This document shows positions 8,804-59,735 of a stretch of DNA of 64,000 bases, piece by piece. Numbering within the stretch: position 1 is the first letter of the stretch; each line of letters opens with the position of its first letter. The notes beneath the pieces were generated by a model. The model searched no databases, was not told the DNA's origin, and saw only the letters and a list, made by a program, of their open reading frames with translations. Source of the stretch: Escherichia coli (GTDB lineage Bacteria > Pseudomonadota > Gammaproteobacteria > Enterobacterales > Enterobacteriaceae); the NCBI RefSeq assembly GCF_048403405.1, contig NZ_CP183129.1, one strand, 5' to 3'. Both the position numbers and the translations under genes were made by a program.

Positions 8804-8843
8804 TCTTGTGCATGATGTTTTCGAAAAGAATGCAGAAATAAAT

Positions 8844-8869
8844 ACGCCCTCGGGTAACCCCGAGGGCGT
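8844..8869. terminator. bidirectional hairpin between convergent yhfS and yhfL
   Basis: Perfect inverted repeat acgccctcggg-taac-cccgagggcgt. Confidence 0.55.
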
Positions 8870-8909
8870 CAGGCAATTAAACCGGTGTTAGCCGATTTCT
8901 GTCAGAGAC

Positions 8910-9328: not shown

Positions 9329-10702
9329 TTAATGGTTAGAGAACCAGTTCAATTTATCGCGCAGGCCAACAACCCGACCAATAATAATTAGCGATGGACT
9401 GTTCATTTGCTGCGCCAGTTCGCCCAGCTGCGTGAGCGTACCGTCAATCACGCGCTGCGTGACTGCCGTTCCGTTTTCGACAATTGCCACCGGCATTTCG
9501 CCAGGCATACCGTGTTCAATCAGCTTTTGCTGAATAGTCGCAGCCTGATTCAGCCCCATATAAAACACCAGCGTCTGTTTTTCTGCCGCCAGGTTTTCCC
9601 AGTCCAGTTCGCCACCGGTTTTTAAGTGTCCGGTAATTAAGCGTACGCTCTGGGCATAATCGCGATGCGTGAGCGGAATACCCGAATAGGCAGAGCAACC
9701 AGAAGCTGCGGTAATACCCGGAACCACCGAGAACGGAATACCCGCGTTGCACAGTGTTTCCAGCTCTTCGCCACCACGGCCAAAAATAAACGGATCGCCA
9801 CCTTTCAGCCGCACCACGCGTTTGCCTTTTTGCGCTTCCCGCAGCAGGATCTGGTTTATCTCTTCCTGCGGTACGCAGTGGTATCCCGCGCGTTTGCCGA
9901 CGAAAACGCGATCCGCATCGCGGCGTACCAGATTCATAATATCGTCAGAAACCAGACGGTCGTAGACCACCACATCTGCCTGCTGAATTTGTTGCAGTCC
10001 TTTTAGTGTCAGCAGCCCGGCATCGCCCGGACCTGCGCCAACCAGCACCACTTCACCGCGATGGTCGAGCGGTTCGTTGATTAACTGTTCGGTCGTTTCA
10101 GTAATGGCTTTCTGATCGTTGTTTGCCAGCGACTGCGCCAGGCGGTCATTAACGAACAGTTTTTCCCAGAAACGGCGACGCTCACCCATCGTGGCGAACT
10201 GTTGTTTCACTCGCCCGCGTAATTGCCCGGCGTATTTCGCCACCTGGCCCAGATGCAACGGCAGCAGTGATTCAAGTTTTTCGCGTAACAGGCGCGCCAG
10301 AACCGGAGAGGTGCCGCCAGAGGAGACCGCGACCATTAGCGGTGAGCGGTCAATAATCGACGGCATAATAAAGCTGGCGGCTTTCGGCGCATCGACCACG
10401 TTACAGAAGATGCGACGAGCTTCAGCGGCTTCACTGACGCGCTGGTTAAGCGCGTCATCATCCGTCGCAGCAATTGCCAGCCAGCAGGTGTCGAGAAGGC
10501 TTTCATCAAATGGCCCTTCGACGAGGGTTAACATGCCTGCATCTGCCCATGCGGTGAACTGTGGAATAAACGCTAATGCATTCACCGTTAAGCGAGCGCC
10601 TGCGTCTAACAGCAACCTTGCTTTGCGTTCCGCGACATCACCACCGCCGACAATCAGACAGTCGCGATCGCGTAATTGGCAAAATATAGGCAAATGATCC
10701 AC
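9329..10702 (-). CDS. cysG: siroheme synthase
   Basis: 457 aa ORF, matches E. coli CysG. Confidence 0.95.
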
Positions 10703-10720: not shown

Positions 10721-11527
10721 TTAACCGGCAGCTGTTTCAGTTTGATTAAATTTGTCCGCAACCGGACGATTCGCTTTCGGCGTAGCATACCAATAACCCA
10801 ATCCCATGAATACGGCACCTGATAAAGTATTACCCAGCGTCACCCACAGCAGGTTATGACCAATACCCGCCAGCGTGTAGGCTTCGCTGTGGTTGCCAAA
10901 CCAGGAGAGGGCGAACAGCGTCATGTTAGCGATGGAGTGCTCGTAGCCGGACGCGATAAATGCCAGCAGACACCACCAGATAGCGATAAATTTCGCCGCC
11001 CCTTCAGTGCGCAGCGCCATCCAGATTGCCAGGCAAACCAGCCAGTTACACAATGCACCTTTGAAGAACAGTACCATTGCCGGTGCAGTGGTTTTTGCCA
11101 GCGCGACGGAGTGAACGATGCTGGTATCTACCGGCAGCAGGCTACCGCCACCCCAGCTATAGAGCATGGCGACAAAGACGGAACCGACCAGGTTACCCAG
11201 CCAGGTTTGCGGCAGGATTGCCCACATTTGCCCGTGGCTGATAGTGCCCGCTTTCACCCCAAAGGTGAGGAACATGGTGTGTCCGGTGAACAGTTCAGAA
11301 CCAGCAATAATGACCAACGTTAAGGCGATACCAAAGGTCGCGCCCATCACCAGAGGACGTACGGACGGGTCGAGCAAATTACCGAGCGTGAAAATCAGGA
11401 TGATCCCAAGACCCACATACGCGCCCGCCATGGCGGAGCTGACCCAGAAGCCGAGCGGGTTATTTGCCGACAGGCGTGCAATGCGCGCAGCGTTAGCCGC
11501 ACACTTATTAATAGTGTCTGTAAACAT
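10721..11527 (-). CDS. nirC: nitrite transporter
   Basis: 268 aa hydrophobic ORF, formate/nitrite transporter family. Confidence 0.95.
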   Translation of the reverse strand: MFTDTINKCAANAARIARLSANNPLGFWVSSAMAGAYVGLGIILIFTLGNLLDPSVRPLVMGATFGIALTLVIIAGSELFTGHTMFLTFGVKAGTISHGQMWAILPQTWLGNLVGSVFVAMLYSWGGGSLLPVDTSIVHSVALAKTTAPAMVLFFKGALCNWLVCLAIWMALRTEGAAKFIAIWWCLLAFIASGYEHSIANMTLFALSWFGNHSEAYTLAGIGHNLLWVTLGNTLSGAVFMGLGYWYATPKANRPVADKFNQTETAAG

Positions 11528-11652: not shown

Positions 11653-11979
11653 TTAACCGCGTAGCTGCACCACGCCGTCTTTCACTCGCGCGTCGTAATG
11701 CTTGACGGAAAACTGTTCGTCTTCCATGCACAAGCCGTCGCTTAAGCGAAAACGCTGTTTTTTCAGCGGGCTGGCGACCCACAGCTCGCCCTGGTGTTCC
11801 GCAATCAGCCCGCGTGACAGCACGCTGGACTCGAAGAACGGATCGATGTTGCTGATCGCAAACACCTGGTCGCTGTGATACGGGCGGAAAATCGCTACCT
11901 GCTCGTCACCTAACAGCGCGCAGACGCCGGTTTCAGGCAGGATGTCATCGATTTTGCAGATGTCTTTCCACTGGCTCAT
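11653..11979 (-). CDS. nirD: nitrite reductase small subunit
   Basis: 108 aa ORF overlapping the nirB stop. Confidence 0.95.
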   Translation of the reverse strand: MSQWKDICKIDDILPETGVCALLGDEQVAIFRPYHSDQVFAISNIDPFFESSVLSRGLIAEHQGELWVASPLKKQRFRLSDGLCMEDEQFSVKHYDARVKDGVVQLRG

Positions 11980-14519
11980 GCGTTGTCCTCCACCAGAGTT
12001 ACCGGGATACGTTCATACGGCGTTGCCGGACGGTGCTGTTCGCGCTCTGGCACCATCTGCACGTTCGGGTCACGCTTGTCGCTGTTGATGAAGTGTTTGA
12101 AGCGAGTCTGCGCGGACGGTGTATTGACCGTTTCAGTCCACTCACACACTACCGCTTCACGCAGGCGCGCCATCTCTTCTTCCAGATGAGCGTTCAGCCC
12201 CAGTTTGTCGTCAATGATCACCGCTTTCAGGTAATCGATGCCGCCTTCAAGGTTTTCTAACCACGGCGCGGTACGCGTCAGTTTGTCGGCAGTACGGATG
12301 TAGAACATCATGAAGCGGTCGAGATATTTGATCAGCGTTTCGCGATCGATATCCGCCGCCAGCAGATCCGCATGACGCGGTTTCATGCCGCCGTTACCGC
12401 AAACATACAGGTTCCAGCCTTTTTCGGTGGCGATGATACCCACGTCTTTACCCTGGGCTTCTGAACATTCACGGGTACAGCCGGAGACACCGAACTTCAT
12501 TTTGTGCGGCGTACGGATGCCTTTGTAGCGGTTTTCCAGTTCCACGCCGAGGCCGACGCTGTCGCCAACGCCGTAGCGGCACCAGGTGCTACCCACGCAG
12601 GTTTTCGCCATACGCAGTGCTTTCGCATAGGCATGACCGGTTTCGAAGCCAGCTTCAATCAGCTGACGCCAGATCTCCGGCAGATCGTCTTTCTGTGCGC
12701 CAAACATCGCCAGGCGCTGGGAGCCGGTGATTTTGGTGTAGAGATTAAATTCACGCGCGATACGACCTACTGCCATCAGCCCTTCCGGGGTGATTTCACC
12801 GCCCGGAGAACGCGGGATCACCGAGTAGGTGCCGTCTTTCTGGATGTTAGCGAGGAAGTTATCGTTAGAATCCTGCAGCGGAGTATGTTCCGGTTTCAGA
12901 ATGTATTCGTTCCAGCAGGAGGCCAGCAGCGAACCGACGGTCGGTTTACAAACTTCACAACCGTAGCCTTTGCCGTGTTTCGCCAGCAGTTCTTCGAAGG
13001 TTTTAATGCCTTCAACGCGGATTAAATGGAACAGTTCCTGACGCGAATAAGCAAAGTGTTCGCACAGGTTGTTGTTAACTTCGATGCCCTGTTTCGCCAG
13101 TTCCGCGTTCAGTACCTGAGTGACCAGCGGGATACAGCCACCGCAGCCAGTACCCGCTTTGGTTTCAGCTTTCAGCGCCGCAACGGTGTGACAGCCTTTG
13201 TTGATAGCAGCAATCAGGTCGCCTTTGGTGACGTCGAAGCAGGAGCAGATTTGCGCGCTGTCCGGCAGTTTATCAACACCGATAGACGGCTTACCGCTAC
13301 CAGAGTGCGCCGGCAGAATCAGAGAATCCGGGTTTTCCGGCAGCTCGATAGCATTCAGCACCAGTTGCAGCAGGTTGCCGTAGTCGCTGGTATCGCCCAC
13401 CAGTACCGCACCGAGCAGGGTTTTGTTGTCTTCGCTGACAATAAGGCGTTTGTAGATCTCTTTGCTTTCGTCGAGGTAAACGTAGCTACGTGCGCCAGGT
13501 GTGCGACCGTGCGCATCACCAATACCGCCTACGTCTACGCCCAGCAGTTTCAGCTTGGCGCTAAGGTCAGCACCTTCAAAGGCGTTTTCGCTACCGAGAA
13601 TATGGTCAACGGCGACCTGCGCCATTTTGTAGCCTGGTGCTACCAGACCAAATACACGGTTGTTCCAGCTTGCGCATTCACCGATGGCGTAGATATCCGG
13701 ATCGGAAGTCTGGCAGGAATCATTAATGACAATACCCCCACGCGGAGCAACGTCCAGACCACACTGGGTTGCCAGCTTATCGCGCGGACGGATACCGGTA
13801 GAGAAGACGATAAAGTCGACTTCCAGTTCGCTGCCGTCGGCAAAACGCATGGTTTTACGCGCTTCAACACCTTCCTGCACAATCTCAAGGGTGTTTTTGC
13901 TGGTGTGAACGCGCACGCCCATACTTTCGATTTTGCGACGCAGCTGCTCGCCGCCCATCTGATCAAGCTGTTCCGCCATCAGCATAGGGGCAAATTCGAT
14001 AACGTGGGTTTCAATACCTAAGTTTTTCAGCGCGCCAGCGGCTTCCAGACCTAACAGGCCGCCACCAACAACGGCACCGCGTTTGCTGCGACGGGCACAG
14101 GATTCAATGGCGTTGAGGTCTTCAATGGTGCGATAGACAAAGCAGTCCTGAGTATCAGAACCTTTGATTGGCGGGATCCACGGGTAGGAACCGGTCGCCA
14201 TGATCAGCTTGTCATAAAAAACGGTGCGCCCGGCGCTGGAGTGAATCACCTTCTCCTGACGGTTGATGGTGATAGCGCGTTCGCCGACCAGAACTTTGAT
14301 GCCGTGTTTCTCGTAGAAGCCTTCGCGCACCAGCGACAGCTCTTCGGCGGTGTGGTGAGAGAAGTAAGACGAGAGGTGTACGCGGTCATAAGCGATGCGC
14401 GGTTCTTCACAGAAAACGGTAATATCAAAGTTGGCCGCATCAGATTTATCAAGAAGATCTTCGATAAAGCGATGGCCGACCATACCGTTACCGATAATTG
14501 CGAGTCTGACTTTGCTCAT
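11976..14519 (-). CDS. nirB: NADH-dependent nitrite reductase large subunit
   Basis: 847 aa ORF; N-terminal FAD/NAD Rossmann GxGxxG. Confidence 0.95.
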   Translation of the reverse strand: MSKVRLAIIGNGMVGHRFIEDLLDKSDAANFDITVFCEEPRIAYDRVHLSSYFSHHTAEELSLVREGFYEKHGIKVLVGERAITINRQEKVIHSSAGRTVFYDKLIMATGSYPWIPPIKGSDTQDCFVYRTIEDLNAIESCARRSKRGAVVGGGLLGLEAAGALKNLGIETHVIEFAPMLMAEQLDQMGGEQLRRKIESMGVRVHTSKNTLEIVQEGVEARKTMRFADGSELEVDFIVFSTGIRPRDKLATQCGLDVAPRGGIVINDSCQTSDPDIYAIGECASWNNRVFGLVAPGYKMAQVAVDHILGSENAFEGADLSAKLKLLGVDVGGIGDAHGRTPGARSYVYLDESKEIYKRLIVSEDNKTLLGAVLVGDTSDYGNLLQLVLNAIELPENPDSLILPAHSGSGKPSIGVDKLPDSAQICSCFDVTKGDLIAAINKGCHTVAALKAETKAGTGCGGCIPLVTQVLNAELAKQGIEVNNNLCEHFAYSRQELFHLIRVEGIKTFEELLAKHGKGYGCEVCKPTVGSLLASCWNEYILKPEHTPLQDSNDNFLANIQKDGTYSVIPRSPGGEITPEGLMAVGRIAREFNLYTKITGSQRLAMFGAQKDDLPEIWRQLIEAGFETGHAYAKALRMAKTCVGSTWCRYGVGDSVGLGVELENRYKGIRTPHKMKFGVSGCTRECSEAQGKDVGIIATEKGWNLYVCGNGGMKPRHADLLAADIDRETLIKYLDRFMMFYIRTADKLTRTAPWLENLEGGIDYLKAVIIDDKLGLNAHLEEEMARLREAVVCEWTETVNTPSAQTRFKHFINSDKRDPNVQMVPEREQHRPATPYERIPVTLVEDNA

Positions 14520-14577
14520 TTTTGCCTCGATTTCTTTTCTATTACCGCCTACCTTAACGATTCAGCAACCCCGCTTA

Positions 14578-14591
14578 TTGATGTAAATCAA
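14578..14591 (-). promoter_or_regulatory. FNR binding site of the nirB promoter
   Basis: Perfect TTGAT-N4-ATCAA palindrome about 65 nt upstream of nirB ATG. Confidence 0.7.
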
Positions 14592-14604
14592 ATTCACCTT
14601 TATA

Positions 14605-14620
14605 TACTCCTTAAGGGGTA
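14605..14620 (-). promoter_or_regulatory. NarL/NarP 7-2-7 heptamer pair
   Basis: TACTCCT-TA-AGGGGTA inverted heptamers just upstream of the FNR site. Confidence 0.5.
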
Positions 14621-14740
14621 TATTGCTGATTTGTATAAATTTTCTTAAGTCACGGAATTGTCTGACATTTCATGTTTGTGCAAAAAATAGACAAAATGAA
14701 CGGGTTTATAGAAATAGATGCACGTAGCGGGGTAAGAGAG

Positions 14741-14772
14741 GAAAAGGCCGGACGACGATAGTGTCGTCCGGC
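14741..14772 (-). terminator. hairpin after tsgA
   Basis: Inverted repeat gccggacgac/gtcgtccggc immediately 3' of tsgA stop. Confidence 0.5.
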
Positions 14773-14780
14773 ATGAACAA

Positions 14781-15962
14781 TTAATGAGAGGTCAGGGTGT
14801 TATGCTGACGGTGACGGCTGACGAAACCTAACAGGAAGCACATCACAAAGACGACAGCGTACAGACCGTTTGCTGTAAGCAGTGCCGCCTGCGGACCGCT
14901 ATGTTCAACAATCGGGCCGGTAACCACAAAGGTCAACATAGTACCGATGGTCCCGCAGGTCAGGACAAAGTTAACCAGTTTTGGCGATGGTACTTTGGTC
15001 TGCTGTGAACCCAAAGTGATGATGGTGGTATAGATTGCGCTGGAGAAGAAGCCCAGGGCGAGAATTGACCACGCCATATGTGCCGGTGTTCCGGTGTTAA
15101 AGACGTACATCAGAATCGCAGCCAGACCAGCCAGTACGGTCAGGATACGTTGCAAATCGAAGAAGCGAAGAATAAAGCTGAACGCCCACATGCCGACCAT
15201 ATATGACATCCAGAAGTTACTCACCAGCGTGCCCGCGTCGTTCAGGCTCATGCCCAGGCCTTTGGCATACTCCGGCACCCAGGAGATAAAACCTAACTGA
15301 CCGAGGATGTAGCACAGTGCCGCAATGGAGAGAAACAGCACGCCGATCCCCCACTTTTCTTTCTCTACCGGAGCATCCGTTTTTGGCGCATGTTTGCCCA
15401 GCGCCGGGAACTCACAGCCGAAGGTCAGAATAAAAATAGCGACATACACCAACCCGATGCAGGCATAAACCCAGTACCACTCAATGCTGCGCGCCAGTAG
15501 AAACGCGGCGATCATTGGGAAAATCATCCCAGCCATACTGAAGAAGGAGTCGGTAAATAACAGGCGGGAACCGCGCTGACGCCCTTCATACATTTGTGTT
15601 ATCAGGAATGTACCAATCGACATGGTGATGCCGCTGACCACCCCGAGAATGAACATCGCCGCCGAGAACAGCGCCAGGCTGTGGCTGAACATCAAACCGG
15701 CAACCGCCAGCACCATCAGGAGAAAGCCAAAACGTAACTGCGTTTTCAACGGGACGATTTCCATCAGCCAGGCGTTGAGGAAGATAGAGATTAAAATGCC
15801 GGCGTTGAGGAAGGTGAAGGTGTTACTCATACTGGAAACAGGCAGATTGAAATAATCGGCGATATTTCCCATCACCATCCCGGTGACAATAACCAACGCA
15901 CCGGTCAGTGCGTAGGAGAGAAAGCTAATCCATGTGAGCTTAATGCGATTGCTGTTAGTCAT
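14781..15962 (-). CDS. tsgA: MFS family membrane protein
   Basis: 393 aa hydrophobic ORF. Confidence 0.9.
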
Positions 15963-16223
15963 GATTGGCCTGCGTTCAAAAATAAAATGGCATAGCGGGC
16001 TATGCCGCGAGCGGGCGATTTTAGGTGATTTTGTGATCTGATTAAGTGTTTTATTGCAATCGGTTGCTAAATTGCATTTTAAGAGGTGATTTTGATCACA
16101 GAATAAAAAGTGATCGTCAGGTTACATATATTTCAGATACGTAAAATTAGGTAAAGGGATGGCCTTGTTCTTGAAGGCTATTTAGAATCTCTTCACTTGC
16201 TTTTTTTCTGCTCTGTTTGTTAA

Positions 16224-21776: not shown

Positions 21777-22409
21777 TTAACGAGTGCCGTAAACGACGAT
21801 GGTTTTACCGTGTGCGGAGATCAGGTTCTGATCTTCCAGCATCTTCAGAATGCGTCCCACGGTTTCACGAGAACAGCCGACAATCTGACCGATTTCCTGA
21901 CGGGTAATTTTGATTTGCATACCGTCCGGGTGAGTCATAGCATCCGGTTGTTTTGCCAGGTTCAGCAGAGTCTGTGCAATGCGGCCCGTCACGTCGAGGA
22001 ACGCCAGGTTGCCCACTTTCTCTGAAGTGACTTGCAGGCGACGCGCCATCTGTGCAGACAGACGCATCAGAATGTCCGGGTTTACCTGAATCAATTGGCG
22101 AAATTTTTTGTACGAAATTTCAGCCACTTCACAGGCGGTTTTCGCACGTACCCATGCGCTACGTTCCTGGCCCTCTTCAAACAGGCCCAGTTCGCCAATA
22201 AAATCACCCTGATTCAGATAGGAGAGGATCATTTCTTTACCCTCTTCGTCTTTGATCAGCACTGCCACAGAGCCTTTAACGATGTAGTACAGCGTTTCCG
22301 CTTTTTCACCCTGGTGAATAAGCGTGCTCTTGGATGGGTACTTATGAATGTGGCAATGAGACAAGAACCATTCGAGAGTCGGGTCTGTTTGCGGTTTGCC
22401 AAGCACCAT
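21777..22409 (-). CDS. crp: cAMP receptor protein
   Basis: 210 aa, identical to E. coli CRP as recalled. Confidence 0.97.
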
Positions 22410-37145: not shown

Positions 37146-38387
<1,242 letters not shown>

Positions 38388-38411
38388 TTACACGTTAATT
38401 AGTTTCGAATT

Positions 38412-38439
38412 AAAAAGGGCGCTTCGGCGCCCTTTTTGC
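38412..38439 (+). terminator. terminator after tufA
   Basis: Hairpin aaaagggcgc-ttcg-gcgccctttttg. Confidence 0.65.
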
Positions 38440-38569
38440 TGCCCGTAATTTGAGCTCGAAATATTTAGTCGTAATTTCACTCGCTGAACTATGGCGCAAA
38501 TAAAACTGTGCTATTGTAATCATAACCATTCTCATTTACACTTTGCGCAGAATTTGAACGGGAGCAATC

Positions 38570-38836: not shown

Positions 38837-39313
38837 ATGAAAGGTGATGTTAAAATCATAAATTATCTCAATAAACTATTGGGAAATGAGCTTGTCGCAA
38901 TCAATCAGTATTTTCTCCATGCCCGGATGTTTAAAAACTGGGGCCTGATGCGTCTCAATGACGTCGAATACCATGAATCTATCGATGAGATGAAACACGC
39001 TGATAAATATATCGAGCGTATTTTGTTTTTAGAAGGAATCCCCAACTTACAGGATTTAGGCAAACTGGGGATTGGTGAAGATGTCGAGGAGATGCTGCAA
39101 TCCGACCTGCGATTAGAACTGGAAGGCGCTAAGGATCTCCGTGAGGCTATCGCGTATGCCGACAGCGTTCATGACTATGTTAGCCGTGATATGATGATCG
39201 AGATCCTTGCCGATGAAGAAGGTCATATTGACTGGCTCGAAACTGAGCTGGATCTCATCGGTAAAATCGGTCTACAAAATTACCTGCAATCACAAATAAA
39301 AGTTAAAGATTAA
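38837..39313 (+). CDS. bfr: bacterioferritin
   Basis: 158 aa ferritin-like. Confidence 0.95.
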
Positions 39314-39777
39314 CGGCCTGCCAGCAAACTATCCCAGCCTACAACGAAACCCGCAGCCGCCAGAAATGGCCCAAACGGCAGCGGGTTTTTTAATGACTCT
39401 TTTCCTCTCATGAGCAGACCAATAACTACGGCTCCGCAAGCGAATGAGGCAGCAAGGAAAACCAGTCGTGGCAAGAAGGTCCATGTATGCCAGGCACCAA
39501 GGGCGGCGAGAAACTTCACATCACCATAGCCTAATCCTTCTTTATGACGCAGTATGCGATACCCCCAGTAAATGACAGCGAATGTGCCGTAACCAATAAT
39601 CGCCCCCCATAACGCATCGGCTAAACCGTCAGGATTACAAACCTGATAGAACAAAAGACCTGACCAGAGTAACGGGCACGTAAATCTGTCAGGTAACAAG
39701 CCATGCTTTGCATCCCAGAAAAAAAGTAGGGCTGATAAACAAGCGTACAAAATCAGAAAGGGAAGGGTAGCGTCCAT
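39310..39777 (-). CDS. short prepilin (leader) peptidase, A24 family
   Basis: 155 aa hydrophobic ORF with [14 protein letters not shown] motif; 3' end overlaps bfr stop; corresponds to the position of gspO/hopD. Confidence 0.7.
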
Positions 39778-39950
39778 AAAACATCCTCTGTAATTGGAGT
39801 ATCACCATCGAATAACTCCGGATGCTCAGCAACAGAGAAATCGCTGATTTGTTAACCTGGTTCCGGTGAAAAACGCTATCTTCACAACTTTACAAATTTC
39901 GTGGAATACAGCTCGCAATCTGCGCGTTGCGATTAATTTCTACCCGATGC

Positions 39951-39978
39951 TTGCGTCAGGCTCAGATTTGCGTATAAT
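39951..39978 (+). promoter_or_regulatory. S10 operon promoter
   Basis: TTGCGT (39951-39956), 16 bp spacer, TATAAT (39973-39978), GC-rich discriminator. Confidence 0.55.
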
Positions 39979-40467
<489 letters not shown>

Positions 40468-59225: not shown

Positions 59226-59735
59226 TTAAGCCCGGGCTTTCAGACGATCCAGTTTTTCAACTTTCTGACGAATACGTTGTTGTTTCAGCGGTGACAGATA
59301 ATCCATAAACAGTTTGCCGACCAGGTGATCCATCTCATGCTGAATACAGATGGCTAACAGACCGTCTGCTTCCAGTTCAAATGGTTTACCGTCGCGGTCC
59401 AGGGCGCGAATTTTAACTTTCTCTGCGCGTGGCACTAAAGCACGTTGTTCAGGGATCGACAGGCAACCTTCTTCAATGCCTGTTTCGCCGCTTTTTTCTA
59501 AAAGCTCCGGATTGATTAACACCAGCCGTTCGTCACGGTTTTCCGAAACATCAATAACAATGATACGTTGATGGATATCAACCTGGGTTGCCGCCAGGCC
59601 AATACCTTCTTCTGCGTACATCGTCTCGAACATATCATCGACGATACGCTGAATTTCTGCATTCACTTCTTCTACCGGTTTAGCAACTTTGCGAAGCCGC
59701 TCGTCCGGAATATGTAACACTTGCAAAACTGACAT
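59226..59735 (-). CDS. def: peptide deformylase
   Basis: 169 aa with EGCLS and HEMDH motifs. Confidence 0.97.

Follow-up and report, generated by a model that had tools for sequence, protein, structure and literature searches.

The 261-bp region that separates tsgA from nirB in the window, as we call the whole 64,000-nucleotide stretch of DNA analysed, is almost certainly the promoter of the Escherichia coli nirBDC-cysG operon (pnir), placed on the minus strand. The nirB promoter is already known, and the finding is correct but ordinary. Sequences, spacing, identity to K-12 and conservation were computed here; the proteins that bind the region, and the roles assigned to them, are taken from the literature on K-12.

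The window belongs to the E. coli chromosome and is 100% identical to, and colinear with, the corresponding region of strain TUM14771. A further 24 kb (window 40000-64000) was also 100% identical to this strain, at exactly the coordinates that colinearity predicts. With tsgA upstream of it and the first gene of nirBDC-cysG, nirB, immediately downstream, the intergenic region has the position of pnir, and the annotation of TUM14771 lists ppiA, tsgA, nirB, nirD, nirC and cysG as the flanking genes. Pfam domains Pyr_redox_2, Fer2_BFD, NIR_SIR and NIR_SIR_ferr, the domain set of NirB, were found in the 847-aa product. Because nirB is encoded on the minus strand, the promoter reads from right to left and fires leftward; in this direction, the tsgA stop codon comes first, followed by a terminator hairpin, an AT-rich stretch, TACCCCT-TA-AGGAGTA, 13 bp, TTGATTTACATCAA, 58 bp and the nirB ATG (Table 1). 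Upstream, the nirB control region is bounded by the tsgA terminator.

Table 1. Genes, binding sites and promoter elements of the tsgA-nirB region. Positions are those of the window; distances are counted from the inferred transcription start.
Feature	Window position	Strand	Distance from start	Sequence and basis
tsgA	14781-15962	minus		ORF of 393 aa, upstream of nirB; MFS transporter by Pfam
tsgA intrinsic terminator hairpin	14747-14772	minus		10-bp stem, 6-nt loop, then CTTTTCCTCT; terminator scan
Fis-type 15-mer (candidate)	14678-14692	minus	centre -142	GTCTATTTTTTGCAC; full match to GNNYAWWWWWTRNNC
IHF-like core, IHF II (candidate)	14655-14667	minus	-124 to -112	TGTCAG-ACAA-TTC; K-12 reads TATCAG
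IHF-like core, IHF I (candidate)	14619-14631	minus	about -88	AATCAG-CAAT-ATA (AATCAGCAATATA); 2 mismatches; overlaps distal heptamer by 2 bp
NarL/NarP 7-2-7 site	14605-14620	minus	centre -69.5 (14612.5)	TACCCCT-TA-AGGAGTA
FNR site	14578-14591	minus	-48 to -35, centre -41.5 (14584.5)	TTGATTTACATCAA; perfect consensus; base-for-base the K-12 nirB site
Cra/FruR-like sequence (candidate)	14553-14566	minus	-23 to -10	GCTGAATCGTTAAG; 1 mismatch to RSTGAAWCSNTHHW; overlaps the -10 element
-10 hexamer	14551-14556	minus	-13 to -8	TAAGGT; 3/6 match to TATAAT
Transcription start (inferred)	14543	minus	+1	A; carried over from the K-12 FNR position
Leader	14520-14543	minus		24 nt, AATAGAAAAGAAATCGAGGCAAAA; Shine-Dalgarno GAGG at 14525-14528, six bases before ATG
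nirB, nitrite reductase large subunit, first gene of the operon	11976-14519	minus		ORF of 847 aa; annotated nirB in the identical TUM14771 region
nirD	11653-11979	minus		ORF of 108 aa; TUM14771 annotation
nirC	10721-11527	minus		ORF of 268 aa; TUM14771 annotation
cysG	9329-10702	minus		Coordinates converted from the TUM14771 record

Of 5426 complete E. coli genomes, 5425 have a match to the region; that in TUM14771 is 100% identical, and an identity of at least 99% was reached in only 23 of the 5426. This rarity of the whole intergenic haplotype is probably explained by a single base in the tsgA terminator stem, at window position 14764, where an A turns a G-U pair into A-U and gives a perfect 10-bp stem. 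Among ten E. coli sequences compared, only the window and TUM14771 carry this A, and eight of the nine sequences other than the window have G. An Rfam scan of the whole window detected no RNA family in the tsgA-nirB region; its sole match in the window was the alpha-operon ribosome binding site (RF00140, 50875-50986, plus strand, 102.7 bits), as expected in a ribosomal protein gene region.

The first-pass annotation had described this region as a nirB promoter with a perfect FNR palindrome and adjacent NarL/NarP heptamers at the expected spacing, and all of these elements were recovered. On the strand as given, the palindrome TTGAT-GTAA-ATCAA (TTGATGTAAATCAA) agrees with the consensus TTGAT-N4-ATCAA at 10 of 10 positions, and the heptamers (TACTCCT-TA-AGGGGTA, TACTCCTTAAGGGGTA) form an inverted pair in 7-2-7 arrangement, both fitting TACYYMT. 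The centres of the two sites are 28 bp apart, which is the distance between the published positions -69.5 and -41.5. The promoter assignment itself is borne out by alignment with K-12 MG1655, to which the region is identical at 255 of 261 positions, by nirB downstream and by an FNR 14-mer that is the same as in K-12. Both sites occupy the same positions in the two strains, with one base differing in the distal heptamer. The annotation had also proposed that the region is regulated as in E. coli; this is supported, but the window is E. coli itself, and the relationship is therefore one of identity, not of analogy.

Published data on K-12 place FNR at -41.5 for nirBDC-cysG, which is ChIP-bound and FNR-activated (PMC3688515). 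Table S6 of that genome-wide study scores the identical nirB 14-mer, which coincides with an FNR ChIP-seq peak, at 17.06 with the FNR matrix (ln p -16.52); of the sites in part 1 of 2 of the table, only yfiD (17.25) ranks higher, and narK has the same score. This provides the position-weight-matrix check that the first-pass annotation had proposed for FNR. In the supplement of the study, the nirB transcript ratio of fnr mutant to wild type appears to be 0.03 in K-12, which has the same core sequence (PMC3688515). NarL is located at -69.5 in the nir promoter (PMC10853779).

We compared the frequency of both patterns in the window with that in dinucleotide-preserving shuffles. The FNR pattern TTGATNNNNATCAA occurs twice (0.12 expected) and the 7-2-7 pattern TACYYMTNNAKRRGTA once (0.00 expected in shuffles). 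Lone TACYYMT heptamers were not enriched in the window (36 as against 29.4 expected), indicating that it is the inverted pair that carries the signal. The second perfect FNR palindrome, TTGATGGATATCAA, is found at 59568-59581, inside the def coding sequence and about 155-170 bp from the def start; its counterpart in Table S6 is the 'smf/def' site TTGATATCCATCAA, which has a score of 15.06 and an FNR ChIP-seq peak (PMC3688515). The table also lists GTGATCAAAATCAC, present at 16086-16099 between ppiA and tsgA, among its predicted FNR sites, with a ChIP-seq peak and a score of 12.33 (PMC3688515); its GTGA/TCAC half-sites look at least as CRP-like as FNR-like.

The inferred start site follows from placing the centre of the FNR site at the published -41.5 (PMC3688515). 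With this register, the activator site overlaps a -35 region that is unusable (AATAAG at -36 to -31), and the -10 element is recognisable, as in class II promoters of the CRP/FNR type; on these features, the nirB promoter is a predicted class II activator-dependent promoter. A generic sigma-70 consensus scan of 14400-14900 returned no promoter, which is expected for a promoter that depends on an activator, and the scan gives no positive support either. The leader is identical in all ten E. coli sequences compared and highly conserved across genera. Upstream of it, overlapping the -10 element, is a sequence resembling a Cra/FruR site. We take the Cra/FruR consensus to be RSTGAAWCSNTHHW, which has no exact match in the promoter; since GCTGAATCGTTAAG misses it by one base, it is reported here only as Cra-like. 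The nirB gene has been listed as repressed by FruR ('FruR-'; PMC3686733).

All six single-base differences from K-12 lie at or upstream of -72 (-72, -123, -157, -190, -221 and -234), and the sequence is identical from -71 to +44, which takes in the first 20 nt of nirB. Only one of them falls within the FNR or NarL/NarP binding sites: at -72 (window 14615), in the distal heptamer, the window reads TACCCCT and K-12 TACCCAT, both of which fit TACYYMT. Alleles were counted with 41-mers that have this base in the middle, a design that keeps either allele from seeding a megablast match to the other; C, as in the window, was present in 3842 genomes and A, as in K-12, in 1208, indicating that the window carries the majority allele (approximately 71% of complete E. 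coli genomes). The ten E. coli sequences, sampled across the range of identity, contained 19 variable positions, none of them downstream of -72; the stretch from -71 to +44 was invariant. Inside the 7-2-7 site, the positions that varied among the ten were -72 (C/A) and -74 (C/T), which are the degenerate positions of TACYYMT. Natural E. coli variation in the nir control region is thus confined to its modulatory part, at and upstream of -72. The G at -123, which breaks the TATCAG of K-12, was considered as a possible oddity and rejected as such, being present in seven of the ten sequences.

Larger differences from K-12 were noted elsewhere in the window. The cryptic type II secretion cluster gspB-gspO is missing between rpsJ and bfr, where only a 155-aa prepilin-peptidase remnant is left, and chiA is missing between bfd and tuf. 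Together, these absences (window 39308-40153 and 38386-38567) account for approximately 15 kb, and the nirB and def FNR sites are 44,990 bp apart in the window as compared with 60,095 bp in K-12. The fructoselysine operon frlABCDR, located between yhfL and yhfS in K-12, is also absent (window 8804-8909), leaving yhfL and yhfS adjacent, as in TUM14771.

To examine conservation beyond E. coli, we searched GTDB r220, with each species represented by one genome, for TTGATN4ATCAA-N12-14-TACYYMTNNAKRRGTA. This two-site pattern occurs at 115 loci, where a rough hand calculation with uniform base composition gives a chance expectation of well under one match in the collection. At 82 of the 115 loci, a NirB homologue starts 54-60 nt past the FNR site, its N-terminal part being 66-100% identical to that of the window's NirB. 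The layout of 7-2-7 site, 13 bp, FNR site, 58 bp and nirB ATG is found again in the genomes of 82 other Enterobacterales species, from genera that include Citrobacter, Enterobacter, Kluyvera, Buttiauxella, Cedecea, Pantoea, Erwinia, Pectobacterium, Raoultella, Kosakonia, Atlantibacter and Franconibacter, as well as from Salmonella arizonae. No Escherichia, Klebsiella or Salmonella enterica was among the 115 loci, even though either E. coli allele is an exact fit to the pattern; since the region is present in all but one of the complete E. coli genomes, the missing Escherichia records appear to point to a gap in the collection or in the scan.

Per-column information content was calculated for the 63 loci with an identical start-codon offset, which represent 61 distinct sequences. 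It was high at several features outside the search pattern, namely the -10 element, the Cra-like stretch, the leader with its Shine-Dalgarno sequence, AAATCA at -89 to -84 and ACTTA at -107 to -103, and the spacers between sites varied. The pattern did not require these features, and their conservation is therefore independent evidence of function. Both -72 alleles are widespread in other genera.

The two-site module also precedes other genes. In Rheinheimera, Arsukibacterium, Alishewanella and Alkalimonas (loci L007, L008, L021, L026, L029, L044, L062, L098 and L101), the same 7-2-7 site and an FNR-type palindrome, with a gap of 14 bp instead of 13, are located approximately 47-76 nt upstream of a gene of about 122-132 aa with a DGC domain (PF08859; for example, L062 1004-1497). 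The neighbours at L062 are NnrS, a NorR-like sigma-54 activator and a ScdA/hemerythrin gene. This arrangement suggests that the PF08859 gene, which is uncharacterised, may be under anaerobic control combined with control by nitrate or NO. By eye, the proteins downstream of the module at loci L010, L041, L031, L066, L079 and L011 resemble NapF (ferredoxin-type proteins in two gammaproteobacterial MAGs), OmpW (Shewanella and Moritella) and NrdG (a Cellvibrio MAG).

Upstream of the NarL/NarP site, we found candidate sites for IHF and Fis. The Fis-type 15-mer is centred exactly at -142, where Browning et al. (2000/2008) reportedly place Fis I, a repressing site; the consensus GNNYAWWWWWTRNNC matches four times in the window, as against 1.87 expected. 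The two IHF-like cores agree only approximately with the consensus, and both Fis and IHF sites are known here as motifs. That at -124 to -112 is near -115, presumably the location of the activating site IHF II. The other, at about -88, includes the AAATCA stretch at -89 to -84 that is invariant in the 61 distinct Enterobacterales promoters, and its overlap with the distal heptamer fits the published clash of NarL at -69.5 with IHF at -88, by which repression by IHF and Fis is relieved (PMC10853779, PMC3688515). Fis is reported to repress the nir promoter (PMC10853779, PMC3688515).

These elements can be assembled into the mechanism described for K-12. In the absence of oxygen, an FNR dimer would occupy the perfect TTGAT-N4-ATCAA at -41.5, replacing the missing -35 element and recruiting RNA polymerase to the weak TAAGGT -10 element, with FNR activation held down by IHF and Fis from their upstream sites at about -88 and about -142, respectively. 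When nitrate or nitrite is available, phosphorylated NarL or NarP would bind the 7-2-7 site at -69.5, displace IHF and lift this repression, and transcription would proceed leftward from around 14543, through the 24-nt leader, into nirB. Anaerobic induction by FNR and a NarL/NarP response to nitrite and nitrate are expected in this strain by analogy with K-12.

We gave virtually no credence to the possibility that the two motifs co-occur by chance and have no regulatory role. Lone heptamers do appear in the window at chance frequency, and the palindrome inside def indicates that perfect FNR sites can occur outside promoters; however, the expected counts of 0.12 and 0.00 and the exact spacing between the two sites and from them to the nirB ATG speak against coincidence, which was rejected on the conservation of the layout in 82 other species genomes and the ChIP-seq occupancy of the identical K-12 site (PMC3688515). 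That the palindrome is instead a CRP site, in a promoter under catabolite control, is just as improbable, even though CRP and FNR are paralogues with related 5-4-5 / 5-6-5 palindromes and the crp gene is nearby in the window (21777-22409). CRP half-sites are TGTGA/TCACA and FNR half-sites TTGAT/ATCAA, and the half-sites here are those of FNR. Moreover, the identical sequence has one of the top FNR matrix scores, at an FNR ChIP-seq peak, in part 1 of 2 of Table S6 of the genome-wide study (PMC3688515), and a CRP site was rejected on both counts.

A less radical alternative accepts the same promoter and proposes that its output is quantitatively unlike that of K-12, the C/A difference at -72 and upstream differences such as that at -123 changing its affinity for NarL/NarP or IHF. 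We consider this unlikely. The 7-2-7 site and an IHF-like core do each contain one of the six differences from K-12, E. coli variation is restricted to the upstream modulatory region, and Browning et al. (2008) reportedly found that differences in upstream IHF and Fis sites among enteric bacteria set the level of nir expression. Nevertheless, both -72 alleles fit TACYYMT and are widespread in other genera, and it is the window that has the E. coli majority allele at -72 (3842 to 1208), with the G at -123 likewise shared by seven of the ten sequences. The converse consequence concerns K-12, whose A at -72 is the minority allele: if this base altered NarL/NarP affinity, nitrate and nitrite induction in K-12 would be unrepresentative of most E. 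coli, and upstream variation would be tuning nir between lineages, a scenario that we regard as rather improbable.

Returning to the nir promoter itself, the region is orthologous to K-12 pnir (FNR at -41.5, NarL/NarP at -69.5, IHF at -88 and Fis at -142), with which it shares the FNR 14-mer, the -10 element, the leader, the spacing and the flanking tsgA and nirBDC-cysG, and from which it differs by the six single bases, including those at -72 (TACCCCT for TACCCAT) and -123 (TGTCAG for TATCAG). The other nitrite reductase promoter under the joint control of FNR, NarL/NarP, IHF and Fis is the nrfA promoter (pnrf), outside the window, which serves the operon for the periplasmic cytochrome c nitrite reductase. 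In pnrf, the 7-2-7 element lies at -74.5 instead of -69.5, and high nitrate represses the promoter. Like pnir, it is a class II FNR-dependent promoter with FNR at -41.5 (PMC3688515), and the abstract of PMC5434802 likewise describes a NarL/NarP 7-2-7 site upstream and modulation by nucleoid proteins. The yeaR and ogt promoters use the same 7-2-7 element for NarL but in a different way: NarL, at -43.5 or at -44.5/-77.5, contacts RNA polymerase directly and without FNR, whereas at nir it is located at -69.5 and acts by anti-repression (PMC10853779).

The result serves mainly as a sanity check, in which a textbook promoter in an ordinary E. coli chromosome was placed correctly from its sequence. 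It adds little new biology, but it is mildly useful in that it limits variation to positions at and upstream of -72, identifies the -72 allele of K-12 as that of a minority of E. coli and extends the layout to at least 82 other species of Enterobacterales.
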